Positions 1-61,045 of a stretch of 64,000 bases of DNA are shown piece after piece. Numbering within the stretch: position 1 is the stretch's first letter; each line of letters opens with the position of its first letter. The notes under the pieces were generated by a model, which saw nothing but the letters and a program-made list of their open reading frames with translations, made no database searches and had not been told where the DNA came from. The stretch comes from Candidatus Pacearchaeota archaeon. Its GTDB lineage: Bacteria > Patescibacteriota > Minisyncoccia > Minisyncoccales > UBA5738. Made by a program: the position numbers and the translations under genes. The DNA lies in assembly GCA_035362275.1 (NCBI GenBank), contig DAOSDI010000002.1:2232-66231 (forward strand). Direction: 5' to 3'.

Positions 1-719
1 TACAAATCGTTATCAATAAGTCCGAGTGAAAAATCTTCATTCTGGCGCCGACAGAACAAAGCGTCTTGGGCAAATTCCTTATAAACTTTAATATTTGGAA
101 ATTTTTGATTTAAGTCTTCTCGGTCAAGAATAGAAAAATTCCTAATGCCGAAAGATTCCCCCAAACTGCAAAACGGATAATCCAGCGCGAATTGAAACGC
201 TTTATCAAAATTTTTTACCGCTCCCGCGATCCCTCCTTCAAAAAGCTCAAAGGGATTTAAAACTTGGATATAAGCATCAACATATTGCAAGTATTCTTCA
301 GAGCTAATAACTCTTGCCTTATAGGATCCTTGGAAAATTCTACCGGACTCTCCGTATTTGGCATTTGTGTAATTGGTAAATCCAATTCCCAATTTTTGCA
401 TTAACATAGCGATACCACCAGCAATGATTTCTCGTAAAAGCAAATGAAAATGATTAGGCATCAAACAGAATGTTTTAACTTCAACCAACGGTTTGCGCTC
501 AGACCAACTTGGCGGCCATTCAAAATCGTTGCATCGTCCGCTTTTTTTCAAAAAAAATAATTCCTGAAAAACTTTTTCTGTTGATTTTTGATTATTAAAA
601 TAGCGCAAGATATTCATAAGCCGCCAATAATCCTCATTACCATTAAAAATTACCATCTTACGATTTCCCCGATTATAAATGTGGGCATAATCGCCCACTG
701 AAATTTCGTCCTTCCTCAT
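1..719 (-). CDS. IS200/IS605-type HUH Y1 transposase, REP-associated tyrosine transposase (RAYT)-like; C-terminus runs off the left window edge
   Basis: Not in the ORF track because it is open to position 1. My translation from the ATG at 719-717 reads MRKDEISVGDYAHIYNRGNRKMVIF...KTFCLMPNHFHLLLREI...KYGESGRIFQGSYKARVI. LMPNHFHLLL is the HUH motif and GRIFQGSYK the Tyr-bearing segment typical of the Y1 transposase (COG1943) family. Confidence 0.8.
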   Translation of the reverse strand, partial: MRKDEISVGDYAHIYNRGNRKMVIFNGNEDYWRLMNILRYFNNQKSTEKVFQELFFLKKSGRCNDFEWPPSWSERKPLVEVKTFCLMPNHFHLLLREIIAGGIAMLMQKLGIGFTNYTNAKYGESGRIFQGSYKARVISSEEYLQYVDAYIQVLNPFELFEGGIAGAVKNFDKAFQFALDYPFCSLGESFGIRNFSILDREDLNQKFPNIKVYKEFAQDALFCRRQNEDFSLGLIDNDL

Positions 720-736
720 AGATTTTTATTTTTATT

Positions 737-840
737 GTAGCGATATTTCTAGCGATATTAAATATCGCTAAGATTATTTTAGCATAATTTTTGTAGCGAT
801 ATCAAATAGCGATACTTGATAGCGATACTTGATATCGCTA
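737..840. repeat. Cluster of REP-like hairpin half-sites TAGCGATA(T/C)
   Basis: GTAGCGATAT (737-746). Perfect hairpin TAGCGATAT-TAA-ATATCGCTA (750-770). Block GTAGCGATAT-CAA-ATAGCGATA-CTTG-ATAGCGATA-CTTG-ATATCGCTA (793-840). The cluster starts 18 bp upstream of the RAYT start codon. Confidence 0.7.
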
Positions 841-850
841 TGAAAAGAGG

Positions 851-890
851 CAAAACAAGAGCTCTGCCCCGAAGGGAGCAGAGCTCTTTG
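851..890 (-). terminator. Rho-independent terminator after the surface-protein gene
   Basis: 10-bp perfect stem AGAGCTCTGC (858-867) / GCAGAGCTCT (878-887). On the minus strand it is followed by a T-rich run (TTGTTTTGCCTCTTTT). It lies about 40 nt after the stop at 927. Confidence 0.6.
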
Positions 891-926
891 CCGCGCTTCG
901 CCACAAGAGAAGCGACTTGACTCAAA

Positions 927-3005
927 CTAGCGCAAGTAAATCGCCGGGCTGATCCACGCCGCTTCGCCATTCATATAACTTGAAGTTACGCTGGTCGGAG
1001 TGGTAGACAGATGCCCCCAATTAATGGAGTTCACCCGAATATCATAGGTGCCCGCGACACCACCATTACTGGCAGTGGCCTTCACCGCGAACGTCGCCGA
1101 GTTCCCTTCGCTAACCTTATAGGTGCCACCCACCAACACTGTGTTGTCCGGTTGGACATAAGTCACATCATTCAGCGTTGCTTGAACACCACCAACACTG
1201 GATTTGATAACAAACGCATCCGTGCTGGTCGCCGAAATGTAGACATCACCGTTCACCGCTTTCACTTGGATGTTGAAAGTCGCCGACATCGTGGAACTCG
1301 CACCATCAAACGGAGCTTGCGTGTTGTCCGTAGTAATACTGGCCAAAGTGAATTCCGGACCCTCGGCATAGATATACGCCGCGTTGCTGGTCGCAGTTCC
1401 CGTGCTCGTGCCAGTGGTGCCATTGCTCTTGGTGAAACCAACTTTGCCCGTGCCGATCGCAACCGTATAGGTGTCTCCATCATCGGCCGACACACGAGTA
1501 CCGGTATTAGGCGCCGCCAAAGTATCGTCAACTTTGATTGACAGAGTCTTGGTCGTACCTTTGGAAATGGTGTAGTCCAATTCGGTGAAGTCATTGTTTC
1601 CGGCAGTAGCGTTGGGGCTAATCGTGCCGATCACCGTGCCGCCATCGTCAACCACGTAAGCGGTCGCGGGAATCTGGGACGCACCAAAGTCAACATCCAA
1701 AATCTCGTCAATGATCAAATCGTCCTTGCTGGCCTTCAAATCAAAGGTCATCAATGTCGCGCCGCTGATTTCCTGATTGGAATCGGCGACAATATTCCGC
1801 TTCTTGGGGCTGTTGGCATTTAAGCTCAACGCCAAAGTCGCGTTCGCGGCCTGCGATTCGTTGACAGTGAAACTGCGATTTACATCACCATATTCCACGC
1901 CGCCGTATTGGTTCAAACCGGCTTGGTCAACCGCGCGCACTGCAGTTGCAGAAGGCATACCGATGTTGATCGTTTGGCTGGTAGTAGTGGTTTGGAATAA
2001 ACCGCTGGAAATACCGGGCAAAACATCCAACTTCACTGTCAACACTTTGTCGGTATTGACCGGTACAATAACTTTGCTGGTGAATCCCGCCAAAGTGATC
2101 TGATAGTTGGTGCTGGTCACCTTGGAAACCGTGGTGGAATTCAACGCGCTGGAAGCAATTTGCGTGTCGCCGTCATACAAATACACGTTGGTAAAATATG
2201 AGTAAGGCTGGGCGCCAAATTGCAAAGTCACGCGTTGAACATCAACATCGGAGCCAGTGGCTTTCACTTTCAGGCCCATCACCGCCACTTTTTCATCACC
2301 TTCGTAGGTCTTGGTACCGTTGGCCGGGCTGGGGTTCACGGAAACCGTGATGGAACCTTCCTGACCGGTCATGGTCAAGCCAGTGCCGGTGGAAGTGCTC
2401 GTGGACGAGCAGGATTCACCCGTAACCGGGCTGTAACCCGCGGTAGAAGTGCATCCTTCAGGCAAAGTGGTGCCGGTCGTGCCGGTGGTGCCAGTTTCGC
2501 CCGTGGTGCCGGTCGTGCCGCCAACCAACATCGCGTTCAATTTCGCGCGAGTGGAAGCACCCACAAAACCGGTGCCCGCGGTCAAACCGACCGGAGCCAA
2601 AATTTCCGCGGCGTATTTGTTTTGAAACGCCACCACCGCGGCTTTGGTCAAACCGCCAAAATACTGAGATTCATTGCCCGCCGAACCCACGCCGGAAGCC
2701 GCCACTTGCGTCGCCGGATCCTGGTTCAACAAAGCTTGCAAACACTGCACATCGGTTCCTTGCGAACCCAACGTCAAATTCCTCGTGAAGCTGATCCCCG
2801 CGCACGCCGCCGGAGCGGTTGAGGAAGTCGTGCCCGTGGTAGTCGTGGTGGTTCCCAATTGTCCCATCAAAGACGCCAATTGCGCCTGAAGCTGGGCAAT
2901 TTGAGCCGCCAATTCTTCGGCAGTCGCCGCTTGTCCCGCGGACGGAACAATCGCGGCCGCCATCGCCAACGCAATTACGCCGGCGAATAATTTCTTGCTA
3001 TTCAT
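927..3005 (-). CDS. Secreted/cell-surface protein with an N-terminal peptidoglycan-binding-like domain, T/G-rich linkers and a beta-rich repeat region
   Basis: Signal peptide MNSKKLFAGVIALAMAAAIVPSAGQA. The segment GSQGTDVQCLQALLNQ...YFGGLTKAAVVAFQNKY resembles PG_binding_1. TTGTTG linkers and a long Ser/Thr/Gly-rich beta region follow. Confidence 0.55.
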   Translation of the reverse strand: MNSKKLFAGVIALAMAAAIVPSAGQAATAEELAAQIAQLQAQLASLMGQLGTTTTTTGTTSSTAPAACAGISFTRNLTLGSQGTDVQCLQALLNQDPATQVAASGVGSAGNESQYFGGLTKAAVVAFQNKYAAEILAPVGLTAGTGFVGASTRAKLNAMLVGGTTGTTGETGTTGTTGTTLPEGCTSTAGYSPVTGESCSSTSTSTGTGLTMTGQEGSITVSVNPSPANGTKTYEGDEKVAVMGLKVKATGSDVDVQRVTLQFGAQPYSYFTNVYLYDGDTQIASSALNSTTVSKVTSTNYQITLAGFTSKVIVPVNTDKVLTVKLDVLPGISSGLFQTTTTSQTINIGMPSATAVRAVDQAGLNQYGGVEYGDVNRSFTVNESQAANATLALSLNANSPKKRNIVADSNQEISGATLMTFDLKASKDDLIIDEILDVDFGASQIPATAYVVDDGGTVIGTISPNATAGNNDFTELDYTISKGTTKTLSIKVDDTLAAPNTGTRVSADDGDTYTVAIGTGKVGFTKSNGTTGTSTGTATSNAAYIYAEGPEFTLASITTDNTQAPFDGASSTMSATFNIQVKAVNGDVYISATSTDAFVIKSSVGGVQATLNDVTYVQPDNTVLVGGTYKVSEGNSATFAVKATASNGGVAGTYDIRVNSINWGHLSTTPTSVTSSYMNGEAAWISPAIYLR

Positions 3006-3247
3006 TGTTTATTTTTTTTGTTTTACACAGGTTATGGATCAATGCCATAACCTTCTTAACTTTTGTCGCGCCGACCCTTTCTTCGCGAAACCGCGAAATT
3101 CCTCCCCGCCAAAGCTTTAAAGCGGTGAAGATCGCGACTGCTTATTCTCCTTTTGCCCCTCCTTACGTCGGGACGCGGGAGAGATTTGCCGCGCTTCTTT
3201 CAAAGACCGGCAAATCTCTCCCGCAAGCTTTTTTCTGTTTTGATTTT

Positions 3248-4021
3248 CTAATTGTTGAGCGAACTGTTCAAGTAGTAATCAATGGCTTGAGAATAGGTGC
3301 CCGCGGAATATAATTCCCGCACCTTGTTGAGATCAGCCATTTTCTCTTGTGGCAACATTTCCTCTTCGTTTAAATAAACGATCAGCGATTCAATAATCTG
3401 TTTGTCCAAGACCACTTCGGCGCGCGGATCTTCTTCCCCGGCGCCCGGCTCCGCGCCCAGCACGGCATAAACCTGCTTTTCCCTGTCGTCAATTTCTTTC
3501 ATCGCCCGCGCCGCCTGCTTGGCAATCTCGCCGGCCTTCCGGGGATTTTTTTTCACCATCGCGGCCACTTCTTTTTTGGCTTCGGTCTTCGCGGTCTGAT
3601 ACTCGTCCATCGCCGCCGGCAAGTTCCGCGCCAGATTCCGGCGGGAAATAATGTCAATTTCTTCCAGCCGCTTGGCGGCCAGCTGCAGATTCGCCGCGGC
3701 GACATCGCCGCGCCGGACTTGTCCCATCACCATCGCACTTCCTTTTTCCGCGGCTTTTTTCAATCCGTATAGCGGCTCCCCGGGCAACGCATTCTGCGCC
3801 GAAGCCAGCAATCCCCCGCCGGCGCCCGCCGCCAGAATCAATCCGGCCAATGCCGCGCGATATTGAAAAACAAAGCGGCGCAAAAAGATCATCGGCGAGC
3901 TTTTTGCCGCCATCGCTTCCGGCCCCATAATGCGCGTTTTGCACGAAACCACCCAATCGTTATCAGGCGCAATTTCCCGCAAAGTCTTTATTCGGTTGAT
4001 CAATGCTTTTTCGGAGTTCAT
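3248..4021 (-). CDS. Single-pass membrane protein, DUF5667-like; putative anti-sigma partner of the upstream ECF sigma factor
   Basis: TM segment AALAGLILAAGAGGGLLA is followed by LPGEPLYGLKKAAEKG, the motif characteristic of DUF5667. The gene lies directly downstream of the ECF sigma gene. Confidence 0.5.
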   Translation of the reverse strand: MNSEKALINRIKTLREIAPDNDWVVSCKTRIMGPEAMAAKSSPMIFLRRFVFQYRAALAGLILAAGAGGGLLASAQNALPGEPLYGLKKAAEKGSAMVMGQVRRGDVAAANLQLAAKRLEEIDIISRRNLARNLPAAMDEYQTAKTEAKKEVAAMVKKNPRKAGEIAKQAARAMKEIDDREKQVYAVLGAEPGAGEEDPRAEVVLDKQIIESLIVYLNEEEMLPQEKMADLNKVRELYSAGTYSQAIDYYLNSSLNN

Positions 4022-4128
4022 ATTTTTGGGCTCACACTACCGATGACGCAAAATCCGCGAAAATGTTACACTAGACAAAAATTAGCATTAAGGCGCCTAA
4101 GTTTATTCACACTTAAAATTCTTTTGCC

Positions 4129-4167
4129 AGGGTCTAACCCCCGCGATTACACGGGGGATAGACCCTT
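4129..4167. repeat. GGGTCTAACCC-family hairpin (solo copy)
   Basis: AGGGTCTAACCCCCGCG-ATTACA-CGGGGGATAGACCCTT is an imperfect palindrome with the same GGGTCTAACCC / GATAGACCC arms as the elements at 5690 and 60934. Confidence 0.6.
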
Positions 4168-4226
4168 GGAATACAAGAATACGCCACCCCAGCAAGTGGC
4201 TACTTTCCACCTCTTGGCAAAGTTAT

Positions 4227-4739
4227 TCAAGAAAGATAGTTTTTTAATTCTTTCATCGCGCGGTGGAGCAAAACTCGCGTCGCCTCTTCAGAACGGTCCA
4301 GGAGTTGGGACACTTCTTTAATTGATAGGTCATCAAGGTAACGCCAGATAATCGCGTTCTGGTAATCATCGTTGAGATGGGACATCGCCTGCCGAACAGT
4401 GTTCATTTCAGATGCCAACATCGCTTTCTTTTCCAAATCAATTTTTGGGTCCGGCAAAAAATTTTCCACCGTTTCGGGCGGTACGGTCTTGATCTTTCCC
4501 GCGGCACGGTAATGGTCAACCATCAGATTTCGGGCGGTTTTATACAAAAACGCGCGCGGATTTTGGACGGCGCCGGGATCTTTCTTGAATTTTTCCCAGC
4601 ACCGCGCAAACGCTTCCGCGGTCAAATCTTGCGCCACCTCCTTGGAGTTCACCCGCAAAAAAACGAAGCGGTAGACTTTTTTGGCGCAATCATCATAGAG
4701 ACGGCTGAATTTTTCTTGATTTTGATCCATGCCAAACAT
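4227..4739 (-). CDS. ECF-type RNA polymerase sigma-70 family factor
   Basis: Region 2 (YRFVFLRVNSKEVAQDLTAEAF...FLYKTARNLMVDHYR) and region 4 HTH (LSIKEVSQLLDRSEEATRVLLHRAMKELK) are both present. Confidence 0.85.
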   Translation of the reverse strand: MFGMDQNQEKFSRLYDDCAKKVYRFVFLRVNSKEVAQDLTAEAFARCWEKFKKDPGAVQNPRAFLYKTARNLMVDHYRAAGKIKTVPPETVENFLPDPKIDLEKKAMLASEMNTVRQAMSHLNDDYQNAIIWRYLDDLSIKEVSQLLDRSEEATRVLLHRAMKELKNYLS

Positions 4740-4818
4740 CTTGACATCTTATCACATTTTTGTTCTAAAATCAACCAATTCCATGAAAAACTCGCGGGGA
4801 AATTCCGCCCGGACGGTA

Positions 4819-5571
4819 TCAAGACAGATTGATTTTCAGTTTATAGGCGGTGGTGTTGCGCTCGCCGGTTCTTTCAATCAATCCCTGTTCCAGCATTGAA
4901 CGGAAATCGCGCCGGATCGTGCGCTTGCTCACGCGGGGAAAAATGTTTTGTATCTCCCAAACCTGCGCCCGCCCTTTCTCCTTCAAAAATTCCGCGATGC
5001 GGTTTTGCCGCGCAATCTGCGCGGCAGTCAGGCTGATTTGACCGGACCCGCGGTTTTCGCCGTTTCCTCCCCCCTCAGTTTCGTTTTCATCTTCTCCGGC
5101 AACGACAGATTCCCCCGCCGGCGCCAGATCGCGCGGCAAGTTCGGGATCAGGGACGCGGGAGATGCGGACGGCACCAAAACAAAGTTCGGGCCGGCAATG
5201 GGCGCGTCATTTTGCGGCGCCGCCGGCGCTTCACCAAAACAGGACTTATCGGCATATTTCTCTTCCGCGGACGCCGGAATCGTTTCTTTTCGCGCGATAA
5301 ATTCCCGGCTCATTTGCTCAAGGCAATCCCGCAAAGACGCGATTCTCTCCGGCGAAACCCAATTCTGGCCGGCGGCAATTTCAAGCTGAATATCCGCCAA
5401 TTCAAAAAGGCGGCAAAGAGTTTCGGCATAATCGTTTTTTTTCATCACCAACTCGGCGACCGCCTCATCGGCGGTTTGGCGCAAATAATGGCGCAGGGGC
5501 TCTTTTTTGGGAAAAAGAAGCGTGATTTCGTAAATATTTTTTGCGAATTGAACCAGCGTGTTTTTGTCCAT
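4819..5571 (-). CDS. Putative regulator: N-terminal four-helix-bundle (rRNA-IVS-protein-like) domain fused to a C-terminal DeoR-type wHTH
   Basis: N-terminus IYEITLLFPKKEPLRHYLRQTADEA resembles the four-helix-bundle family. C-terminus RIAEFLKEKGRAQVWEIQNIFPRVSKRTIRRDFRSMLEQGLIERTG is DeoR-HTH-like. A low-complexity linker joins them. Confidence 0.5.
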   Translation of the reverse strand: MDKNTLVQFAKNIYEITLLFPKKEPLRHYLRQTADEAVAELVMKKNDYAETLCRLFELADIQLEIAAGQNWVSPERIASLRDCLEQMSREFIARKETIPASAEEKYADKSCFGEAPAAPQNDAPIAGPNFVLVPSASPASLIPNLPRDLAPAGESVVAGEDENETEGGGNGENRGSGQISLTAAQIARQNRIAEFLKEKGRAQVWEIQNIFPRVSKRTIRRDFRSMLEQGLIERTGERNTTAYKLKINLS

Positions 5572-5689
5572 AGTCGTTTTGTCCTCCCGACATCAAAATA
5601 TCCGCTTTAAAAAGCGGCGCCGTCAATTTCTTTATACGCTTTTTTGGCCGAATTGTCCAAAATCTCACCGGTAGCCACTCACCGGGTCT

Positions 5690-5802
5690 AAAATTAAAGG
5701 GGTCTATCCCTCGTTAATGCGAGGGTTGGTCCCTTTTAATTCTGCATTCGGATTCTCTGGGAAGGGTCTAACCCTCGCGAGGACGCGAGGGTTAGACCCT
5801 TA
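5690..5802 (+). repeat. Composite two-hairpin repeat element (GGGTCTAACCC family), full copy
   Basis: Hairpin 1 at 5696-5737, conserved linker TAATTCTGCATTCGGATTCTCTGG, and hairpin 2 GGGTCTAACCCTCGCGAGGACGCGAGGGTTAGACCC at 5761-5802. It is near-identical in architecture to 60934-61045 and, as a partial reverse copy, to 42855-42917. Confidence 0.8.
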
Positions 5803-5821
5803 TCCCCGCGAGTGGTCACCC

Positions 5822-6538
5822 TTACCGATTTTCGGCACGGGGCGTACCGCCGGCAAGCGCCGATGTCTGCCAGCCCAAGTCCGGCCGGCGGAACATTGTT
5901 TTTTTGGAGAGATTGTCGCCGGCCGGCCATTTGGCCGGCGCCATCGCCGCATCGGCCAAGCGGCAGTTATCGTCAAACAAATAAAGCGCTTCGTTTTGAT
6001 TGCCCAAAGCTCCTTTGTAGGTTTTATCGGCGGCAACTTGCGGCACGGAATCATCATCGGTGCGCTCCAATAAATACAACCCTTGCGGCGGCAAAGTTTC
6101 ATCGCCGGTGAAAACGATTTTGATCTTCCGGTTTTTGTTTTGCAATTGCCATCCGGCAAGACCAACCTCTTGGCCGGAAATATTTTTCAACTCAATCCAT
6201 TCATCGCTGTAATTGGCTACCGTGCCCATCCAGGCAACTTCGCTGATGATCGCCGATTTTTGCGGCACGGCCGGCGCGGCGGCAAAATCGCACCAGACTA
6301 CCGGCGCCGTTTTTCCGGTTTTGGCCGGCGTGTTTTCCGTCCCCGCGTCTTCCCGCTCCGGCAAAGCTTCCGTGCGCGGCTTGATTTCCGTCCATCCGTT
6401 CCCGTACCAGGCGCCACCCAAGTTCGCGCTCAAAAAACCGGCGCCGTGTTGGCGCCACAACAACGTTCCTCCGGCCAAAAGCCCAACGAACAGCGCGCCG
6501 ATCACCGCCGCTTGTTTTTTGGACAAATAAAATGGCAT
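5822..6538 (-). CDS. Membrane-anchored lamin-tail-domain (LTD) protein
   Basis: ISEVAWMG...SDEWIELKNISGQEVGLAGWQL...LPPQGLYLLERT is LTD-like. I moved the start to the ATG at 6538 (MPFYLSKKQAAVIGALFVGLL, a TM anchor) because the longer ORF-track start lies inside the repeat element at 6594-6754. Confidence 0.65.
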   Translation of the reverse strand: MPFYLSKKQAAVIGALFVGLLAGGTLLWRQHGAGFLSANLGGAWYGNGWTEIKPRTEALPEREDAGTENTPAKTGKTAPVVWCDFAAAPAVPQKSAIISEVAWMGTVANYSDEWIELKNISGQEVGLAGWQLQNKNRKIKIVFTGDETLPPQGLYLLERTDDDSVPQVAADKTYKGALGNQNEALYLFDDNCRLADAAMAPAKWPAGDNLSKKTMFRRPDLGWQTSALAGGTPRAENR

Positions 6539-6593
6539 ATTAAAACGCAAATATTCGCGCGGCTGGCCTGCTTCCGGAGAGCAGATTCTACAA

Positions 6594-6754
6594 GGGTCTA
6601 TTGCCGAATTGGCTTTGGCTGCAATTTCCATCTTTCGGCTGCGCCAAATTCGTCAATCGTCGGCATACTTTAAGCCAAGTATGCCTCCTCTTTCCTCATT
6701 TGACTCGCGCAAAATCTGAAAATTTCGCTTCAAAGCCAATTCGGCAACAGACCC
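6594..6754 (-). repeat. 161-nt long-hairpin element (copy B), candidate MITE or structured RNA
   Basis: 24-bp terminal inverted repeats GGGTCTATTGCCGAATTGGCTTTG / CAAAGCCAATTCGGCAACAGACCC. The central core is shared with 13853-14014 in the opposite orientation. TACAA flanks both ends (6589-6593 and 6755-6759). Confidence 0.7.
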
Positions 6755-7449
6755 TACAAGTCAGCGGCCTTTTTGATCTTGGCAACCGAAATTACCGCAA
6801 CTTGCCCCGATTCGGCCACTTGGGCGATCCCCAGAAAATTACCCTCAATGTCAAACACCGGCGCGCCCGCGGAAGCGGCGTCTTCATAAATGTTGGTCAC
6901 AATCTTATCGCCGGAAACCGCGCGCACCGTCCCTTCGTTGGCAAAAAATTCACCGGACGCCAACGCGCCGACCAAAAAAATCCGCTCTCCCAGCGGCAAA
7001 TCCTCCTGTTGATAAAATCCCGCGGTGAATAAATCCGCATCATTCAAACGCAAAATCGCCAAATTCGCATCCTTGTCGCGCTTCACCACCTCAAAGCCAA
7101 TCTTTTCGCCGGCGGAAAAAACTTCCGCCGCGGCGCCGGCCGGATAGGCGCTGTTTAACGTTACTGCCAGTCCATCAGAGGTGATCGCCGCGCCGGAAAC
7201 CGTGTGGCCGCCGCCGGTCTTGACGGCGATTGCCATATTTTTCACTTTGGCGATGGCATTCTTCAACGCCTTGTTCTCTTGAATCACCGTTTCGCTCTTT
7301 TCAATTTTTGGCGACGAAAGTGTTGACGACAAATAAAGAGGCGCCAGTTCCACGCATTGATAGAAGGAAATCAATCCCCCCGCGGCACCGCCCGCGACCA
7401 GCAATGCGGCAGTCGCGGCGATTTTCAGAATTTTTTTGAATTTTATCAT
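6754..7449 (-). CDS. Membrane-anchored trypsin-fold (S1C/HtrA-like) protein with a degenerate catalytic triad
   Basis: It aligns by eye to the HtrA paralog in this window, with His replaced by Ser (VTLNSAY vs LTNKHVV), Asp by Asn (ANLAILRL vs NDIAVVKI) and Ser by Ala (ASAGAP vs GNSGGP). The gene starts 5 nt after the clpB stop. Confidence 0.6.
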   Translation of the reverse strand: MIKFKKILKIAATAALLVAGGAAGGLISFYQCVELAPLYLSSTLSSPKIEKSETVIQENKALKNAIAKVKNMAIAVKTGGGHTVSGAAITSDGLAVTLNSAYPAGAAAEVFSAGEKIGFEVVKRDKDANLAILRLNDADLFTAGFYQQEDLPLGERIFLVGALASGEFFANEGTVRAVSGDKIVTNIYEDAASAGAPVFDIEGNFLGIAQVAESGQVAVISVAKIKKAADL

Positions 7450-7453
7450 TGGT

Positions 7454-10162
7454 TTAAACCGCCACTTTCGCCGGCCGGCGCAAAGTTTGGCGCGCGGGCG
7501 CGATCACAGCAATCTCGTCGTTTTTAACCTCCACCGAAACACGATCCCCTTCCCTGACTTCACCGGAAACGATTTTCAGCGCCAGCGCGTCCAACACCAG
7601 CTTCTGGATCACCCGGCGCAACGGCCGGGCGCCCAGATTGGCGTCAAATCCCCGGCGCGCCAGCAATTCTTTGGCCGCGTCGGCCACCGCCAAACGGATA
7701 TTCTTGGCGGCCAAACGCCGGTCCACTTTTTGCAGTTCCAGATCAACGATCTTTTTGATTTCCGCGGATCCCAAATAGTTGAAGATCACAATCTCGTCCA
7801 CGCGGTTCAAAAATTCGGGACGAAAAGACTCTTTCAGCACCGCCATTACTTTTTCCTGGATTTTTTCTTTGCCGTTATCAACTTCCGGCCGCGCGGAAAA
7901 TCCCAGCGCCGCTTCCTTGGCAATCACATCCGAGCCGATATTGGAAGTCATAATCAAAATCGCGTTCTTAAACGACGCCGTGCGGCCCTTGGCATCGGTC
8001 AAACGGCCGTCTTCCAGAATTTGCAACAAAATATTAAAGACTTCCGGATGGGCTTTTTCAATCTCGTCCAGCAATATCACCGAATAGGGGCGGCGGCGAA
8101 TCTTTTCCGTGAGCTGGCCGCCTTCTTCGTAACCGACATAGCCGGGCGGCGAACCCAAAATCCGCGATACGGTGTGCTTTTCCATATACTCGGACATATC
8201 CAGCCGCACCAGCGCGTTTTCGTCGTTAAACAGAAATCCGGCCAGCGCCTTGGCGGTTTCGGTCTTGCCCACGCCGGTGGGCCCCAAGAACATAAACGAA
8301 CCCAGCGGCCGGTTTTCTTCGGCGATGCCCGCGCGGGCGCGCCGGATCGCGTTGGCAATCGCGCCGATCGCCGCTTCCTGCCCGATCACCCGGCGTTTCA
8401 AAATCTCTTCCAAATTTTGCAGTTTGCGCGCCTCTTCCTCCATCAGCCGCGTCACCGGAATGCCGGTCCAGCGCGACACCACGTTGGCGACGTCTTCTTC
8501 GGTAATCTGCTCTTTGAGGATCGGGCGGCTCTTTTGAAACCGCGCCAATTTTTTTTCCGCGGACTTGAGCTCTTTGATCAGTTGGGGAATTTGACCGTAT
8601 TTCAATTCGGCCACTCGTTGAAGATTCGCTTGCGCCTCTTCTTTCTCCACCTCAAAACGGCTCGCTTCAAGTTCTTTTTTCAGATTCTTGATTTTGCCGA
8701 TCGTTTCTTTTTCGGAGCGCCATTTGGCCTCAACTTCCTGCAATTTTTCGCCCAAGTCGGCCATTTGCCGTTCAATGGCTTTGCGGCGGAGAATGATTTC
8801 CTGGCCACGGTCTTTTTTGATCGCTTCGTATTCCACCTGCAAATGCTGAAGCTCTTTGCGCAATTTTTCCACTTCCGCCGGCTCGGATTCAATGTCCAGC
8901 CGCAGGGCGCTCATCGCTTCGTCCATCAAGTCCACCGCCTTGTCCGGCAGGAACCGGTCGGGAATATAGCGCGACGCCAATTCCACGCACGCGGCCAATC
9001 CCCGCTCGTCAATTTTGACGCCGTGATGCATTTCATATTTTTCTTTCAGTCCCAGCAGGATCATTTTGGCATCTTCCATTGAAGGCTCGGCCACAAACAC
9101 CGGCTGGAAACGCCGTTCCAGCGCCGGATCCTTTTCAATGTATTTTTGGTATTCTTTCAATGTGGTGGCGCCGATAGCTTTCATTTCGCCCCGTGCCAGC
9201 GCCGGCTTAAGCAAATTGGACGCGTCAATCGTGCCGTCGGCGGCGCCGGCGCCCACCAACGTGTGCAATTCGTCAATAAAAAAGATGTACCGGCCGGCGG
9301 CGCGCTCCACCTCGCGTAGCAACGCTTTGATGCGGTCCTCAAACTCGCCGCGATATTTTGTACCGGCGATCAGCGCACCCAGATCAAGAGATATAATTTC
9401 TTTGTCGCGCAGGCTTTCGGGCGCATTTCCCGACGCAATGCGCTGAACCAAACCTTCCACGATCGCGGTTTTACCCACGCCCGCTTCGCCGATCAACACC
9501 GGATTGTTCTTGGTGCGGCGGCTTAAAACCTGCATCAGCCGGCGAATTTCGTTTTCCCGGCCGATCACCGGATCCAATTTCCCTTGTCGGGCCATCGTGG
9601 TCAAATTGCGAGTGTATTTTTCAATCACTTGATATTTGGATTCCGGTTCCGGATCGGTCACGCGCTGGCCGCCGCGGATCTTGGCCAATTCTTTCAGCAC
9701 GGTTTCATAATCAAGCGCCCCAATCTCGGGCGCGGCAAACCCGCCGTCCGCGCGGATGAATTCCACTTTGTCCAGCACTTCCCGCGCCTTGGTGGCGGTG
9801 CCCGCCAACGCCAAAAACAGATGTTCCACCGAAATGAACTCGTCGCCGAACTTGGACGCTTCTTCCCGCGCCCGCTCCAGCACTTTGGCCATATCCTGCG
9901 TCAAATAGAACTGGCCGAAAGCCTGCGGCGCGGCGATCACCGGCAGTCGGGAAAGCGCCCCCATTATCCGCTTGCGCAAATTCTGAACGTCAACGCCCAG
10001 ACGTTCCAGTAAATTCAAAATCAGGCTCTTTTCCTGAGACAAAAGCGCCGCCAGCAAGTGCAGGGCGTCCACCTGTTGCTGGCCCTTTTCCCGCCCCAGA
10101 TCTTGCGCGTAGAGAATCGCTTCCTGCGCCTTATGAGTAAAGTTTGGTGGTTGGTTGATCAT
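7454..10162 (-). CDS. clpB: ATP-dependent chaperone/disaggregase ClpB
   Basis: Clp N domain, two AAA+ modules ([14 protein letters not shown] and [14 protein letters not shown]) and a long coiled-coil middle domain. The ORF-track start at 10180 is TTG, so I use the ATG at 10162 ([15 protein letters not shown]). Confidence 0.95.
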
Positions 10163-10207: not shown

Positions 10208-10236
10208 ATTATATACCCTGAATTACAAAATAGCAA
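10208..10236 (-). promoter_or_regulatory. Sigma-70-like promoter candidate for clpB
   Basis: The minus strand reads TTGCTA (10236-10231), a 17-nt spacer, then TATAAT (10213-10208). It lies 45 nt upstream of the clpB ATG and 10 bp downstream of the 49-bp palindrome. Confidence 0.4.
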
Positions 10237-10332
10237 TATTGATATTGTAGCGGTATTTGATACCGCTAAAATTTAGCGGTATCAAATACCGCTACGATCC
10301 TAAAAATATTTATTTTGTAATTCAGGATATAT
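10211..10332. repeat. Nested palindromic cassette containing a 49-bp perfect double-hairpin (10247-10295)
   Basis: Inner sequence GTAGCGGTATTTGATACCGCTAAAATTTAGCGGTATCAAATACCGCTAC is a perfect palindrome made of two TAGCGGTAT-N3-ATACCGCTA hairpins. The outer 22-nt inverted repeats ATATACCCTGAATTACAAAATA / TATTTTGTAATTCAGGATATAT match 21/22. Confidence 0.85.
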
Positions 10333-10370: not shown

Positions 10371-11651
10371 TTATCTTTCGCCCAGCGTCGCTTCCAATTC
10401 AATTTCGCCGCCGGCGCGCCGGACTTTCAGCTTTACCTTATCACCCGGATTATATTTTGCAATAACCCGCGCCAAGGAATTTTTTTGGTCCAGTTTTTGG
10501 CCGCCGATTTCCAGAATAATGTCCCCGTCCTTCAACCCGGCGGTTTGCGCGGGAGAACCGGCCATCACAGCGGTGCCGGATTCGCCGGCAGCAATCCACG
10601 CGCCGCGATCCGCCGGCAGATTATTTTCTTTTTGGAGGCGCGCGTCAATCATCGTGTAATAAACACCCAAGTAAGGATAGACGATCTTTCCCGAGGTTTT
10701 AGCCTGCGCCAATCCGCGCTTCGCCAAATTGATCGGAATCACAAATCCCACGTTTTGCGCGCCGCTGGCAATCGCGGTGTTAATGCCGATCACCTCGCCT
10801 TTCAAATTTAATAACGGCCCGCCGGAATTTCCCTCGTTGATGGCCGCATCGGTTTGGATCAAATCCTCCAAAACTTCGTCCTCGCCCGCGCCATAGGCAG
10901 TGATTGACCGTTGCATCCCCGAAATCACACCCACCGACACCGTATTGTCAAATTCTCCCAAGGCGTTGCCGATGGCAATCACGCTTTGGCCGATCTGTAA
11001 ATTGTCGGAATCTCCCAAAGCCACCGCGGGAAACCGCCGCCCGCCGCCGTCGGAGATCTTCACCACCGCAATGTCGTTGACCGGATCGGCCGCCGTCACT
11101 TTGGCCGCATAGCGCTCGCCATCGGACATCACCACGGTATATTGCGCCTGATTATCGCTCACCACGTGCTTGTTGGTTAAAATGGTGCCGTCTTCATCCA
11201 CGATGAATCCCGTGCCGGCGCCGATCTGCCGTTCCTCCGTGCCCCGCTGGCGCAATTGCGGCATCTGGAAGTCCCAGAAATCAAAAGGGTCGGTCCCGCG
11301 CGCATAATATCTTTCATAAACCGGCATATCTTTGGTGATGATGATGGACACCACCGCCGGAGAATAATCCTTGACCGCCTTGACGACCGCCTCTTCCTGT
11401 GAAGTTTGCGGCACATATTCAACCGGCATGTCCGCAGACGGCGTCTCAACGATTTGCGGCGCGAATTTTATCGCCGGCAAGTCAAACCGCTCGGCCAAAG
11501 AATCAAAATCTTGCGAAAACGCCAGCGCTCCCAAGGCAAATCCCGCGATCAGCACCAACATCGCCGGCCAAATGTTTTTTTTGCGATCCTTGCCCATTCC
11601 CAAAAAATTGCTTTTTGACTCCTCTTTTGAGGTGAGATCATACATTGACAT
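10371..11651 (-). CDS. htrA: HtrA/DegP-family serine protease with a C-terminal PDZ domain
   Basis: GTGFIVDEDGTILTNKHVV (His), NDIAVVKI (Asp), GNSGGPLLNLKGEVIGINTAI (Ser), a PDZ-like tail and an N-terminal TM anchor. The ORF-track start at 11684 is TTG inside the repeat, so I use the ATG at 11651 (MSMYDL). Confidence 0.9.
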   Translation of the reverse strand: MSMYDLTSKEESKSNFLGMGKDRKKNIWPAMLVLIAGFALGALAFSQDFDSLAERFDLPAIKFAPQIVETPSADMPVEYVPQTSQEEAVVKAVKDYSPAVVSIIITKDMPVYERYYARGTDPFDFWDFQMPQLRQRGTEERQIGAGTGFIVDEDGTILTNKHVVSDNQAQYTVVMSDGERYAAKVTAADPVNDIAVVKISDGGGRRFPAVALGDSDNLQIGQSVIAIGNALGEFDNTVSVGVISGMQRSITAYGAGEDEVLEDLIQTDAAINEGNSGGPLLNLKGEVIGINTAIASGAQNVGFVIPINLAKRGLAQAKTSGKIVYPYLGVYYTMIDARLQKENNLPADRGAWIAAGESGTAVMAGSPAQTAGLKDGDIILEIGGQKLDQKNSLARVIAKYNPGDKVKLKVRRAGGEIELEATLGER

Positions 11652-11665
11652 AGTATTAAATTGCT

Positions 11666-11790
11666 CTGAATTACAAGACAACAAATATTGGTATCGTAGC
11701 GGTATTTGATACCGCTAAAATTTAGCGGTATCAAATACCGCTACTTCCATACCGCTACTTCCCCGGCAATATTTATTTCGTAATTCAAAG
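11666..11790. repeat. Second copy of the palindromic cassette with the identical 49-bp double-hairpin (11696-11744)
   Basis: The 49-nt inner palindrome is identical base for base to 10247-10295. An extra half-site ATACCGCTAC sits at 11749-11758. The outer arms CTGAATTACAAG / CGTAATTCAAAG are related to those of the first copy. Confidence 0.85.
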
Positions 11791-11839
11791 TAAATTAAAA
11801 ATCTGGGATATTCATTGGAAATTGGTAATTGGAAATTGG

Positions 11840-12832
11840 TTATTTGCGAAACAAGGTTTTGGCTTCTTCCCAAAATTCCGGGCGATCCTTTTTTGCCTTC
11901 ATCCAATACCACCATTCGCCGCCCCACAGATAAAATTCATCCAGTCCGGTGTTCCGGGCAAACGCAACGTTCTCGCGGAACCGGTCGATGTCCATCGTTT
12001 CGGCATCGTTGGCGCCGCCGTCGTATTTTTGGCCGATCGCCCACGGTTCGGCCTGCAATTCAACGCAAACCACCCTCTTTTTGAACAGCAAGCCAACCAA
12101 TTCCGCCTTAAACGCGTAAAACGCCGGCGGCAGAAGATAATCAACATAGATCCCCAATTCGGAAAAATAAACCCGGCGGTACATTGTGATGCCCGCAATA
12201 TCGCCGGCGTTCGCGGCGTTAAACCACCACGATCCTTCCCCGCTATCCGATATTACAACAGGCCTTTTGTTCCCGTCAAGGGATTTGACCAGCGCGATCT
12301 CCTTTTGCAGAAATTTTTCGTCCCGCCAGGGACATTCGCCGAAAGGAAACAACGGCTCGTTTTCCACTTGCCAGAACTCCAGCGCCGGATGATCGCGATA
12401 GCGGATCACCGCGGTTTCCAGCATTGCCAAAACCGCCGTTTGTTGGCGTTCTTTGTCCAGAGCCTTCGCCCACTCCGGAAGATGGCATTCGGGCCAGCGC
12501 GGCGTTTTCATTCCGATCACCAACACCGTTTTGGCGCCGGCGCGCGCCGCTTCGTCCATTTGCCGGTCCAGATCGGAAAAATCATACTCCCCCGGACGGG
12601 GCGCCAGCAAATCCCAATGCGCGGCGATCCGGATCTTCTTGGCGCCCAAATCGTTGAGCAACGCCGAATAGACAACCGGCCAATCCAACCCCAACGCCGC
12701 CGCCTGCTTTTGCGAAAATGAAACGCCCCAAACAACATCCTCCGTTTCCGGCGCCCGCCAGCAATAAAAAATCCCCAACGCGCCCGCCAGCAATAAAATT
12801 AATACTCCCAAAATAGCAAATTTCTTTCGCAT
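11840..12832 (-). CDS. Membrane-anchored glycoside hydrolase, TIM-barrel clan GH-A-like
   Basis: N-terminal TM anchor. WQVENEP contains the NEP acid/base Glu motif typical of GH-A families, and IRIAAHWDLLAPRPGEYDFSDLD is typical of GH5/GH42-like barrels. The ORF-track start at 12847 is TTG, so I use the ATG at 12832. Confidence 0.5.
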   Translation of the reverse strand: MRKKFAILGVLILLLAGALGIFYCWRAPETEDVVWGVSFSQKQAAALGLDWPVVYSALLNDLGAKKIRIAAHWDLLAPRPGEYDFSDLDRQMDEAARAGAKTVLVIGMKTPRWPECHLPEWAKALDKERQQTAVLAMLETAVIRYRDHPALEFWQVENEPLFPFGECPWRDEKFLQKEIALVKSLDGNKRPVVISDSGEGSWWFNAANAGDIAGITMYRRVYFSELGIYVDYLLPPAFYAFKAELVGLLFKKRVVCVELQAEPWAIGQKYDGGANDAETMDIDRFRENVAFARNTGLDEFYLWGGEWWYWMKAKKDRPEFWEEAKTLFRK

Positions 12833-12894
12833 AACTTTTAAATTCAAACAATGCCGGACCCGCCGCGCAAATATTTACACGGCGGATCGAATAT

Positions 12895-13809
12895 TCAATT
12901 TGCCGCAAAGATCGCCAGACCGGCGGCAATCAGCAGAATCGCGGCAATTTTTTGCACCAAGTCCGCCGGAGAAAGCCGCGCGCCGAAAATTTCCGGCCAG
13001 CGGCGCGCCAAAAACAGGGAAAAGATAAAAATCAATCCGTATTGCACACCGGCCATGGCATTGATCGCCGGCACGCTCGCCTGCGGTGCCAGCGACACCG
13101 CAAAACTTTGCAATAAAAACGCGCTGGCGCCCAGCGCCTGCCCCAAGAAAAACAAACCGCCGGGCTTCCCTTTTGCGCGCTGGCCGGCACGCCTAAAAGA
13201 AAACACCGTCCGGCGCACCGATTTTGACGCCAAAAAAGTGATCGCCGCGGCAACGGAACCGAACGCCATCAACAGAAATCCGTTCAAAAAGGGCAACTGC
13301 AAATAAACCAGCTTTGCCGCCACGGTATTGGCGGCAAAAAATAGCGGCGCCGCCAGAACAAACAAAATCGCTTCTTTTTTAATTGAAATTCCGCGCGCCA
13401 TTATCATCCAGCCGCCCAGTATCAGCAAAAAAAATCCCGCCATTTCCTTTTGGTCCAAAACCGCCGCGCCGCCGGAAACCGCGGCCGTCAGAAAAAACGC
13501 GCCGATCGGCGTCAGACTGCCGACCACGGGCACCGCGCGGGCGGCTTCCATCCGCTTGAGCGCCGAAAAATAGAAAAAATTGCCGTAAATTTGCGCCGCG
13601 CCGGCCAAAAACGCCCACCCAAAAACCGGCGGCGCGGGCTTGGTCCAAAATCCGAACGGCAAAAGCAGGAGTGCTGCCGAACTCAAAATTCCCACATAAA
13701 AAGCGTATATTCGCGGATCACCGACTTTTCCGGAAAGCAAGAATTTGTCAATCAGCGCCATCGCCGCAAACAAAGAAAAAGCGGCCAGCGCCACGAAAAT
13801 CCACACCAT
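12895..13809 (-). CDS. EamA/DMT-superfamily transporter-like polytopic membrane protein
   Basis: About 10 predicted TM helices in two halves. The N-terminus has an EamA-like pattern (FAAMALIDKFLL...YAFYVGILSS). Confidence 0.55.
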   Translation of the reverse strand: MVWIFVALAAFSLFAAMALIDKFLLSGKVGDPRIYAFYVGILSSAALLLLPFGFWTKPAPPVFGWAFLAGAAQIYGNFFYFSALKRMEAARAVPVVGSLTPIGAFFLTAAVSGGAAVLDQKEMAGFFLLILGGWMIMARGISIKKEAILFVLAAPLFFAANTVAAKLVYLQLPFLNGFLLMAFGSVAAAITFLASKSVRRTVFSFRRAGQRAKGKPGGLFFLGQALGASAFLLQSFAVSLAPQASVPAINAMAGVQYGLIFIFSLFLARRWPEIFGARLSPADLVQKIAAILLIAAGLAIFAAN

Positions 13810-15420: not shown

Positions 15421-15486
15421 AGAAAATCTTTTTTATTAAACTGCCGTTCTTACATCATACCAAAAAAAATTTTATTGCGCCAAAAT

Positions 15487-15509
15487 TTACAGGGGTTCAA
15501 CCCCTGTAA
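15487..15509. repeat. Solo copy of the CAGGGGTTSAACCCCTG palindrome family
   Basis: TTACAGGGGTTCAACCCCTGTAA lies in an intergenic region. The same palindrome occurs as dimers inside nrdG (21640-21688) and tsaD (53988-54039). Confidence 0.8.
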
Positions 15510-21338: not shown

Positions 21339-22103
21339 TTAAAAGTCGCGAACGCGGACAAACGGCACATAGGGTTTGATCTTGGCCAGCGCCGCAGTGA
21401 AAAATTCGTCGTCAAAGGGTTTTAATTTTTCAAATTCGGGATCAATGTTGCGCCCGGGTTTGAAATTCTGCAAAAAATATTTGGGAGACCGCCCGGGAAT
21501 ATCCTGCCCGATCCACTTGGCCATCCGGCCGAGATCGTCGGGCGTATGAACCCCGGGCGCAACCGTAGTTCTGAATTCAAAATCAATCCCCCCGTTTTTC
21601 AAAATCTTTAGGCTTTTCTCAACATCATCCACTCTTATCGACAGGGGTCCAACCCCTGTCAAATCTGCAGGGGTCCAACCCCTGTCAGCCCCGGCAAAAA
21701 GCGTCGCGTATCTTTCTTTGGGCAGTTTGATGTCCATGGCCACATAGTCAATCAATTTTTTATCAATCAGTTCTTTTATCATTTGAGGATTTGATCCGTT
21801 GGAATCCAGCTTGATCAAAAATCCCAAATCCTTTATTTTTCGGCAAAATTGGGGCAAGTCCGGATGCAATGTCGGCTCTCCCCCGCAAATGACCACCCCT
21901 TCCAGCAATCCTTGTTTTTCTTTCAAAAATTCCAAAACCTCCGTTTCCGGAATTTGGGGCTGTCGGGCAATCAACTCCGGCAGAACCAACTCCTTGGAAT
22001 AACACCACGGACACCGGAAATTGCACCCGGCCAAAAACACCGTGGCCGCCACATGCCCCGGATAATCAATCAACGTTGTTTTTTGCAGTCCGCAAATCTT
22101 CAT
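21339..22103 (-). CDS. nrdG: Anaerobic ribonucleoside-triphosphate reductase activating protein (radical SAM)
   Basis: MKICGLQKTTLIDYPGHVAATVFLAGCNFRCPWCYS carries the CX3CX2C cluster motif, in an operon context with nrdD. The ORF-track start at 22139 is TTG, so I use the ATG at 22103. Confidence 0.85.
   Translation of the reverse strand: MKICGLQKTTLIDYPGHVAATVFLAGCNFRCPWCYSKELVLPELIARQPQIPETEVLEFLKEKQGLLEGVVICGGEPTLHPDLPQFCRKIKDLGFLIKLDSNGSNPQMIKELIDKKLIDYVAMDIKLPKERYATLFAGADRGWTPADLTGVGPLSIRVDDVEKSLKILKNGGIDFEFRTTVAPGVHTPDDLGRMAKWIGQDIPGRSPKYFLQNFKPGRNIDPEFEKLKPFDDEFFTAALAKIKPYVPFVRVRDF
21640..21688. repeat. Dimer of the CAGGGGTYSRACCCCTG palindrome inserted in frame in nrdG
   Basis: GACAGGGGTCCAACCCCTGTC (21640-21660) and CTGCAGGGGTCCAACCCCTGTCAG (21665-21688), 26 nt apart. 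On the minus strand it is translated as DRGWTPADLTGVGPLS. Confidence 0.85.
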
Positions 22104-42756: not shown

Positions 42757-42854
42757 TGCTTTAATCCATTATCACTTGATTATACCACAAAAATCCCCCT
42801 CCGCAAGAGCAAAAAATTGTAACCGCTCTGGGTATTTGTATTTTAAAGGATTTT

Positions 42855-42917
42855 AAAGGTCTGACCCTCGCGTCCTCGCGAGGGTCAGACCTTTCCCAGA
42901 GAATCCGAATTTCAGCC
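42855..42917 (-). repeat. Partial reverse copy of the composite GGGTCTAACCC-family element (linker plus hairpin 2)
   Basis: The minus strand reads GGCTGAAATTCGGATTCTCTGGGAAAGGTCTGACCCTCGCGAGGACGCGAGGGTCAGACCTTT. Confidence 0.75.
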
Positions 42918-47455: not shown

Positions 47456-47541
47456 GGGCAACCCTTGCTTCGCCTCGCCGTAGTTATTGAAGGCGGGTGG
47501 TTGCCCCGATAAATACGGGCGGGCATAAAGCCCGCCCCTAC
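47452..47541 (+). repeat. 90-nt GTAG...CTAC-bounded structured repeat (copy 1)
   Basis: GTAGGGGCAACCCTTGCTTCGCC...GGTGGTTGCCCCGATAAATACGGGCGGGCATAAAGCCCGCCCCTAC overlaps the topA stop codon. A second copy lies at 59773-59862. Confidence 0.75.
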
Positions 47542-59772: not shown

Positions 59773-59862
59773 GTAGGGCAACCCTTGCTTGTCTCGCAGT
59801 AGCTTTAGCGAAGGCGGATGGTTGCCCGAATTGAAAAGGGCGGGCACAAGGCCCGCCCCTAC
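59773..59862 (+). repeat. 90-nt GTAG...CTAC-bounded structured repeat (copy 2)
   Basis: GTAGGGCAACCCTTGCTTGTCTCGCAGTAGCTTTAGCGAAGGCGGATGGTTGCCCGAATTGAAAAGGGCGGGCACAAGGCCCGCCCCTAC is colinear with 47452-47541. Confidence 0.75.
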
Positions 59863-60727: not shown

Positions 60728-60933
60728 TACATTACCTCTTATTTATTTTAAGAACTATTTCTTATTTCTTACCGTTGTTTCGGCGCTGTTCCCTGCCCGC
60801 TCCGAGCGGGTGTTGCCTTTCCTTGGCCGGCGGACGCTCTCCGGCTAAAACTCTCTTTTTTCGCTCCATACTTTTTAATATAATTTTATTGAAAAAATGT
60901 AAAGAGATAAAAGGGTAACTACTCGCTGGTCCC

Positions 60934-61045
60934 AAAATTAAAAGGGTCTAACCCTCGCATTAACGAGGGATAGACCCTTTTAATTTTGAATTCGGATTCT
61001 CTGGAAGGGTCTAACCCTTTTGATTACAAAAGGGTTAGACCCTTA
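60934..61045 (+). repeat. Composite two-hairpin repeat element (GGGTCTAACCC family), full copy
   Basis: AAAATTAAAAGGGTCTAACCCTCGCATTAACGAGGGATAGACCCTTTTAATTTTGAATTCGGATTCTCTGGAAGGGTCTAACCCTTTTGATTACAAAAGGGTTAGACCCTTAA. Hairpin 1 is the reverse complement of hairpin 1 at 5696-5737. Confidence 0.8.

Follow-up and report, generated by a model that had tools for sequence, protein, structure and literature searches.

Transposases that their hosts have kept, together with non-autonomous repeats, are best known from the partnership of REP-associated tyrosine transposases (RAYTs) with repetitive extragenic palindromes (REPs) and REP doublets forming hairpins (REPINs), and work on this partnership has centred on the Gammaproteobacteria. 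Nunvar (2010) is reportedly among the sources on the combined unit of gene and repeats, the REPtron. Patescibacteria have some of the smallest and most streamlined genomes. Here we ask whether an HUH/Y1 gene at the edge of a 64,000-nt stretch of patescibacterial DNA (contig DAOSDI010000002.1, positions 2,232 to 66,231; hereafter the window), and the palindromes around it, form such a unit. With a probability of roughly 80%, we conclude that window positions 1-841, together with about 35 nt beyond the edge, are a REPtron: a vertically inherited chromosomal gene of the RAYT/TnpA-REP type that stands between cognate REPs, copies of which are also dispersed elsewhere.

The Y1 gene and its product

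The original prediction, made from the letters of the window, described an HUH/Y1 open reading frame (ORF) running off the window edge. Translation of the minus strand from 719 to 3 does yield the two motifs on which it was based (LMPNHFHLLL and GRIFQGSYK), and the gene proves to be complete, encoding 239 aa identical to a database protein of the same length (P0001). A longer contig covering this locus (L001, NCBI GCA_964462975.1) shows the frame ending in ...GAT TTG TAG; the stop codon straddles window position 1, since the next base in L001 completes TAG.

The protein scores just above the cut-off of the Pfam Y1_Tnp profile (27.6 against 23 bits), which is matched by all 42 aligned relatives. 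Residues H90, H92, Y150 and N155 are invariant across the 42 homologues, settling a doubt expressed with the original prediction, that the catalytic tyrosine might be absent on proper alignment. Using hhalign, Y150 aligns with Y115 of E. coli RayT and with the tyrosine of the Legionella motif YIVLNP; the consensus of the family here is Y150-I-Q-V-[FL]-N155-P, or Y-x4-NP, with N and P conserved. Since a PDB sequence search with the single protein gave no match, and a search with its profile gave weak matches to ISDra2 TnpA (E ~0.1), a fold search was required. The confident AlphaFold2 model (pLDDT 89) found as its top Foldseek match in the PDB 4er8, a complex of E. coli RAYT with REP (E = 7e-5 over 210 aligned columns), with the longest alignment among the top matches; 2a6m and 2xqc were also at the top, and TnpA of IS608 and ISDra2 followed. 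The protein additionally contains a ~30-residue insertion after the first helix and a ~80-residue helical C-terminal region. A C-terminal helix-turn-helix (HTH)-like domain (Bac_DnaA_C, HTH_23 or HTH_28) was found by Pfam at E <= 0.01 in none of the 42 members.

Among described proteins, strong hhalign matches were obtained with a Legionella plasmid protein (motifs NHYH, FQ and YIVLNP; E = 8e-18, probability 99%) and a P. aeruginosa plasmid protein (NHVH, WE and YIELNP; E = 4e-13). By the table of Quentin 2018 (PMC6006769), both belong to TnpA-Y1 subclass 2.1, which is the same as Bertels RAYT group 1 and the TIRYT/TIRtron class (PMC3733652; PMC5581495; PMC6006769). The window protein is closest to this subclass and is not a canonical E. 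coli-type RAYT. The RAYT/REP system that had been proposed is supported, with hairpins present on both flanks of the gene as described below.

The same hairpin on both sides of the gene

The REP unit follows the pattern GTAGCGRTAT-N3-ATAYCGCTA, in which a 9-bp stem encloses a loop of 3 nt. Across the whole window TAGCGRTAY occurs 17 times against an expected 0.67, and the maximum in any shuffle was 3. The 5' flank of the Y1 gene (737-841) accounts for seven TAGCGATAY half-sites, at 738-840, where at least six had been noticed; the first is separated from the start codon (ATG, 719) by 18 nt, just as had been reported. They fall into two groups (Table 1), with GTAG heads at 737 and 793 and hairpins at 750-770 and 820-840, again in agreement with the earlier description. 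The second hairpin has one mismatch to the search pattern and still pairs completely. A further TAGCGATAC half-site lies within the Y1 coding region (407-415, in codons for GGIAM), and may be there by chance.

Recovery of the other flank from a longer contig had been suggested with the original prediction. In L001 the sequence GTAGCGATAT-CAA-ATATCGCTA-TTTG-ATATCGCTA occupies 10717-10751, includes the Y1 stop codon and extends ~35 nt beyond the window edge; L104 carries this hairpin at the same place. The predicted folding energy is -14.3 kcal/mol (z = -6.7). The Y1 gene is therefore bracketed on both sides by the same hairpin, and the outermost REP units give it inverted termini (CATAGCGATATCAA...gene...TTGATATCGCTATG). 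GTAG is found once more at the Y1 stop codon and at 10247 and 11696 in the window, so that these repeats possess the GT[AG]G foot characteristic of RAYT REPs. A promoter-like site lies between the two 5' groups, its -35 hexamer inside a REP half-site.

Dispersed copies of the hairpin

The same REP, mostly in inverted doublets (REPINs), is present in intergenic DNA elsewhere, including two elements in the window. A one-base variant of the hairpin had been noted at 10247 and 11696, and each of these loci turns out to contain two hairpins of this G variant, TAGCGGTAT (10248-10294 and 11697-11743), with an extra half-site at 11749. At each locus an identical pair of REPs stands in inverted orientation, separated by 5 nt; in element 1 the two GTAG-headed units (GTAGCGGTATTTGATACCGCTA / AAATT / TAGCGGTATCAAATACCGCTAC) are set inside longer complementary arms. 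As single-stranded DNA, 10210-10332 is predicted to fold into one long hairpin of -43.8 kcal/mol (z = -15.9), and 11660-11790 into another of -34 kcal/mol (z = -10.4). Element 1 lies between an htrA-like gene and clpB; element 2, also intergenic, precedes the likely start codon (ATG, 11651) of the htrA-like gene by ~15 nt. The sequence of element 1 is also carried by L062/L106 in a different gene context. No further REP copies were found in the window at <=3 mismatches.

A scan for the hairpin across one genome per species (596 Gb) matched 90 stretches, about 80 of them isolated matches in unrelated taxa (many in Sediminibacterium and Paenibacillus), which is approximately the chance expectation for the pattern. 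The only informative assemblies were the related metagenome-assembled genome (MAG) Patescibacteria UBA6102 and a second, 'Saccharibacteria'-labelled MAG. The latter, a sister genome, contains a homologous Y1 gene (L081) with the same hairpins on both flanks, one of them an A/G hybrid; the presence of this hybrid in its REPtron places the A and G variants in a single family. The corresponding metagenome scan produced 52 stretches. When flanks were clustered, related genome and metagenome contigs placed the REP in 12 distinct contexts besides the REPtron, among them positions that follow terminators, adjoin genes for membrane proteins or lie downstream of an RNA polymerase subunit gene. With the two intergenic doublets of the window, these contexts remove the concern that no other hairpin copies might exist. 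Close relatives of both protein and repeat are found in assemblies of Patescibacteria, Nealsonbacteria and Parcubacteria, which bears out the suggestion of a genome like those of the candidate phyla radiation (CPR).

Two sites whose flanks are almost identical between strains show a difference of precisely one 26-nt REP unit, with a single unit in one strain and a doublet in the other. The number of REP units has therefore changed recently.

A different hairpin for each homologue

We retrieved the surroundings of homologous genes whose products are 25-64% identical to the window protein. Their 5' and 3' flanks have 12-mers in common in 11/11 cases, compared with 8/65 control ORFs taken from these loci (Fisher p = 1.3e-8). 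Applied to E. coli, the test picks up the known rayT REPtron, and for the P. aeruginosa plasmid relative it returns the terminal repeat GGGGACAG, in inverted orientation only. Each homologue in our set is bracketed by its own, different hairpin, shared in both orientations (Table 1), and in L097, L153, L154 and L155 the cognate hairpin is also found at other intergenic sites within 20 kb. The foot tetranucleotide is GTGG in L097 and GTAG in L155, and is lacking in L099, L154-2 and L156; it is not universal in the family. Paralogues that share a contig are 27-67% identical.

In L097 and L155, as in the window, the genes follow the order LTD, HTH_DeoR, sigma-70, DUF5667, large secreted protein, Y1. 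The Y1 proteins of these two loci are 64% (L097) and ~53% (L155) identical to that of the window, and the hairpins differ among all three. The conserved order argues for vertical descent. The finding of a different hairpin at each gene, both in the syntenic orthologue L097 and in paralogues of one contig, points to specific recognition between protein and hairpin. The family as a whole comprises 451 clusters at 50% identity (E <= 1e-30).

Table 1. Features of the Y1 locus and its repeats (positions in the window), and cognate hairpins of homologous Y1 genes in related contigs.
Feature	Position	Strand	Details
HUH/Y1 (RAYT-like) gene	1..719	minus	Complete, 239 aa; ATG 719-717, last sense codon 5-3, TAG stop with its G one base past the window
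3'-flank REP	1..3	minus	First three bases, GTA; overlaps the Y1 stop codon, remainder beyond the window
Proximal 5' REP group	737..770		Half-site GTAGCGATAT 737-746; perfect hairpin TAGCGATAT-TAA-ATATCGCTA 750-770; 18 nt upstream of ATG
Promoter-like site	776..805	minus	TTGATA-18-TAAAAT with TG extension; consensus scan 10/12, pattern match only
Distal 5' REP group	793..841		Half-sites 793-802 (GTAG-headed) and 807-815; hairpin TAGCGATAC-TTG-ATATCGCTA 820-840
Terminator-like hairpin of the upstream 692-aa gene	857..888	minus	Outer boundary of the REPtron, not part of it
692-aa secreted-protein gene	927..3005		Upstream neighbour of Y1
REPIN-like element 1	10217..10326		REP doublet 10247-10295; arms CCTGAATTACAAA...TTTGTAATTCAGG; intergenic, htrA-like gene / clpB
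REPIN-like element 2	11666..11787		REP doublet 11696-11744; extra half-site 11749-11758; arms CTGAATTACAAG...CGTAATTCA
L097 Y1 hairpin	both flanks		GGAAGGACTWAGTCCTTCC
L099 Y1 hairpin	both flanks		CGAAGGT-CTA-ACCTTCG
L153 Y1 hairpin	both flanks		GTGAGAGCTAAGCTCTCAC
L154 hairpins, three genes	both flanks of each		CTACGAGGTCTCGCCTCGTAG; ACAGAGGCCAGACCTCTGT; TTGACCCCTCGGGTTAAC
L155 Y1 hairpin	both flanks		GTGTAGATGTCSGACATCTACAC
L156 hairpins, two genes	both flanks of each		TTTGTCCTTTGCTAAGCAAAGGACAAA; TTGTGTGCCTA...TAGGCACACAA

Neighbouring features and other repeat families

Homologous Y1 genes repeatedly adjoin genes for very large secreted or surface proteins (692-2042 aa, Laminin_G_3). Such regions lie at 1-6536 and 10853-14944 in L099, at 3713-9841, 11004-13155 and 17656-20720 in L154, at 2928-7571 in L156, and at 927-3005 in the window. 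Two Y1 loci are near parts of diversity-generating retroelements (bAvd, reverse transcriptase and an FGE-sulfatase-type target). Repeats have also entered gene calls: in L097 a called 81-aa ORF covers a REPIN (7409-7654), and in L155 a called start lies within repeats (10001-10114), giving an N-terminus translated from repeat units. Five independent assemblies of the Y1 locus itself (L002-L006) end 216-234 nt past the Y1 stop, one of them at 71 nt. We rejected the REP as the cause of these breaks, as the contigs do not terminate at it; their near-coincidence may reflect strain variation or another repeat.

Several further repeat families are present in the window. Palindromes built on GGGTCTAACCC...GGGTTAGACCC lie at 4118-4167, 5670-5801, 42845-42894 and 60914-61044, some of them paired into composites of ~130 nt. 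The GGGTCTAACCC core is also found in many related contigs and at nine intergenic sites in 20 kb of L099, a distant Nealsonbacteria genome; this is an abundant intergenic hairpin family common to CPR lineages and distinct from the Y1 REP. Hairpins of another kind, ACAGGGGTYCAACCCCTGT, occur at 15485-15509, 21637-21687 and 53985-54035 and in L103, L115, L135 and L137. Two of the three window loci are doublets with the 26-nt spacing seen in the TAGCGGTAT doublets, and these hairpins may represent another REP family, with its enzyme gene beyond the window.

The original prediction had also drawn a 90-nt repeat into the REP system. This repeat exists (47452-47541 and 59773-59862; copies 85% identical) and does have GTAGGG...CCCTAC ends, enclosing two unequal hairpins. 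We rejected its membership of the system: it is unrelated to the REP in structure and has no sequence in common with the TAGCGRTAT hairpin. A search of the whole window with Rfam returned only one tRNA, with no family match for the REP hairpins or the 90-nt repeats. Two longer dispersed intergenic repeats, of ~160 nt (window 6594-6754 and L108 4161-4321) and ~195 nt (L001 4796-4991, and L118, L127 and L152), recur at 74-89% identity in unrelated contexts in related contigs.

Discussion

Several of our results weigh against reading this locus as a REPtron. The protein reaches 23.5 bits with the NCBIfam RAYT equivalog NF047646 (REP_Tyr_transpos), below the cut-off of 80, so that of the Y1_Tnp and RAYT profile searches originally proposed only the former gave a score above its cut-off; 30 of the 42 relatives match this model weakly, with no E-value better than 3e-8. 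The hhalign match to E. coli RayT is similarly weak (E = 0.07). The tyrosine motif departs from the class-2 signature Y-x3-NP (PMC6006769), with hhalign needing a one-residue gap to align it to YIVLNP and YIYINP, and the nearest described relatives, those of subclass 2.1, were reported to be without REP-like sequences (PMC6006769). As for the repeats, the Y1 gene of the window is flanked by the A variant while the dispersed copies in the window are of the G variant. The copy number observed is low, with two dispersed elements in ~74 kb of unbiased sequence and only three exact-match REP loci in UBA6102. No orthologous empty site was found when all REP-bearing loci were blasted against the window, L001 and L097, and the differences between single and doublet sites could arise by replication slippage without any enzyme.

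These points must be set against how well other explanations account for the same observations. The original prediction had itself considered an ordinary IS200 TnpA carried with a tnpB partner. If the locus were an autonomous insertion sequence of the IS200 type, its hairpins would represent subterminal structures of the left and right ends, and the doublets would be derivatives of the kind known as miniature inverted-repeat or palindrome-associated transposable elements (MITEs or PATEs). The IS200-like Y1 fold of the protein, the presence of hairpins at both ends and their recurrence in short non-autonomous palindromic elements would all be expected of such an element. It is nevertheless highly improbable here. 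The 64-kb window contains one copy of the gene, there is no tnpB (the neighbour genes encode the 692-aa secreted protein and a 279-aa protein without Pfam match), and none of the 42 family members matches the NCBIfam IS200 models, in contrast to the weak RAYT matches of 30 of them. The chromosomal position has been kept at 64% and ~53% protein identity, yet the hairpins differ, and paralogues on one contig are 27-67% identical and not near-identical. Each side has several hairpins instead of one, and the motifs are NHFH and Y..NP, not the DH[VI]H and Y---Q of IS200 TnpA (PMC6006769).

That the palindromes are operators of a conventional dimeric transcription factor, for example of a stress regulon to which the Y1 gene belongs as merely another regulated gene, is suggested by their 9-3-9 form and their promoter-proximal position at clpB, the htrA-like gene and the Y1 gene. 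We rejected a heat-shock operator at clpB/htrA on account of the element's occurrence in unrelated contexts and at the Y1 3' end, and operators in general are very unlikely for related reasons: the element also follows an RNA polymerase subunit gene and terminators and adjoins unrelated genes for membrane proteins, and one palindrome overlaps the Y1 stop codon. Furthermore, a regulon would not predict a different palindrome on both flanks of every Y1 homologue, including paralogues on the same contig, nor a unit number that varies between near-identical strains. It is also unlikely that the protein is a subclass-2.1/TIRYT-like enzyme whose job does not involve hairpins, and that the palindromes are generic intergenic sequences such as terminators or recombination-prone repeats. 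Such a reading gains from the described lack of REPs in the closest relatives (PMC6006769), from the wealth of other palindrome families in the window and from the shared flank words in 8/65 control ORFs; however, 11/11 against 8/65 is far from chance, the hairpin changes with the protein even between neighbouring paralogues, and the palindromes flanking Y1 are different from GGGTCTAACCC, the abundant generic kind.

We therefore favour the REPtron interpretation, and can propose a mechanism for it by analogy with TnpA-REP of E. coli, S. maltophilia and Marinomonas (PMC3479197, PMC8266576). The Y1 gene product would be an HUH/Y1 single-strand DNA endonuclease of the RAYT/TnpA-REP kind, binding the folded REP hairpin on single-stranded DNA and reading the stem and foot bases of its own REP. 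Cleavage beside the hairpin would rely on a metal site made up of H90 and H92, with Y150 providing a covalent phosphotyrosine link, and rejoining of the ends would add, remove or move REP units. Mobilisation by these steps, and any benefit that the host might draw from it, are suggested by the better-studied systems. Since REPs occupy the promoter-like region of the gene and the stretch immediately following it, binding may also control Y1 expression; this self-regulation is a further guess.

More generally, the Patescibacteria may carry a large, apparently undescribed clade of REP-associated Y1 enzymes (the 451 clusters), branched from subclass 2.1/TIRYT, with each paralogue maintaining its own REP/REPIN family in an ultra-small, streamlined genome. 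We regard the case for this wider proposal as evenly balanced. We found no literature linking RAYT, REPIN or REP to Patescibacteria or CPR. If the proposal is true, RAYT-REPIN partnerships reach well beyond the Proteobacteria, Cyanobacteria and Bacteroidetes, and their persistence under strong genome reduction would suggest a benefit to the host. The REPtron layout across the Patescibacteria offers a test of the 'beneficial partner' idea, namely whether repeats persist by helping their host. The wider proposal would also provide an evolutionary link between TIRtrons and REPtrons, in that the Y1 family could bridge forms flanked by terminal inverted repeats (TIRs) and forms flanked by REPs. Neighbouring paralogues with different cognate hairpins present natural specificity pairs for the study of hairpin reading by HUH enzymes. 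From a practical standpoint, REP repeats could interrupt the assembly of metagenomes and mislead gene callers into reporting ORFs (cf. L097, L155).

Finally, a comparison with described systems helps to place the window locus. The established REPtrons (RAYT/TnpA-REP with REPs, bacterial interspersed mosaic elements (BIMEs) or REPINs) are those of E. coli rayT, Pseudomonas, S. maltophilia and Marinomonas (PMC3116915; PMC3479197; PMC8266576). The window locus resembles them in having an HUH/Y1 gene at low copy number with palindromic repeats of its own on either side, in GTAG-headed repeats dispersed between genes as inverted doublets, in several paralogues per genome with a repeat family each, in vertical inheritance and in the structural match to 4er8. 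It differs in that the protein is only remotely similar by the hhalign and NCBIfam scores given above, is longer at 239 aa, with its ~30-residue insertion and ~80-residue helical C-terminal region, and has the motifs FQ (not WQ/WE) and Y-x4-NP. The TAG of the GTAG head lies within the stem (a 'double-foot' form in the doublets), copy number is so far tens at most and not hundreds, and the host belongs to the Patescibacteria.

Subclass 2.1 was linked by Di Nocera 2013 to TIR-flanked 'TIRtrons', and some TIRs are self-complementary and form dimers or clusters in moderately abundant repeat families (PMC3733652). The likeness to this subclass lies in a length of ~238 aa, NH[YF]H and FQ motifs (NHFH and FQ in the window protein) and a C-terminal extension. 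Typical TIRtron TIRs are non-palindromic with GGGGWSAS, as we confirmed on the P. aeruginosa plasmid copy, whereas the window gene is flanked by short perfect hairpins that stand in both orientations, begin with GTAG in this member and recur elsewhere as REPIN-like doublets. The patescibacterial family is further set apart by the ~30-residue insertion, by Y-x4-NP, by palindromic repeats and by the absence of any detected HTH or DnaA_C-like C-terminal domain. With the IS200/IS605 TnpA proteins of IS608 and ISDra2 the window enzyme shares the HUH/Y1 fold and short palindromic non-autonomous relatives (PATEs), and probably also the recognition of DNA hairpins; its gene differs in lacking Y---Q, tnpB and multicopy identical elements, in its conserved chromosomal position and in the several hairpins on each flank. 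Overall, REPtrons accompanied by REPINs are a known form of organisation, and what is new at this locus is the host phylum and a protein branch nearest to the subclass described as having no REPs.

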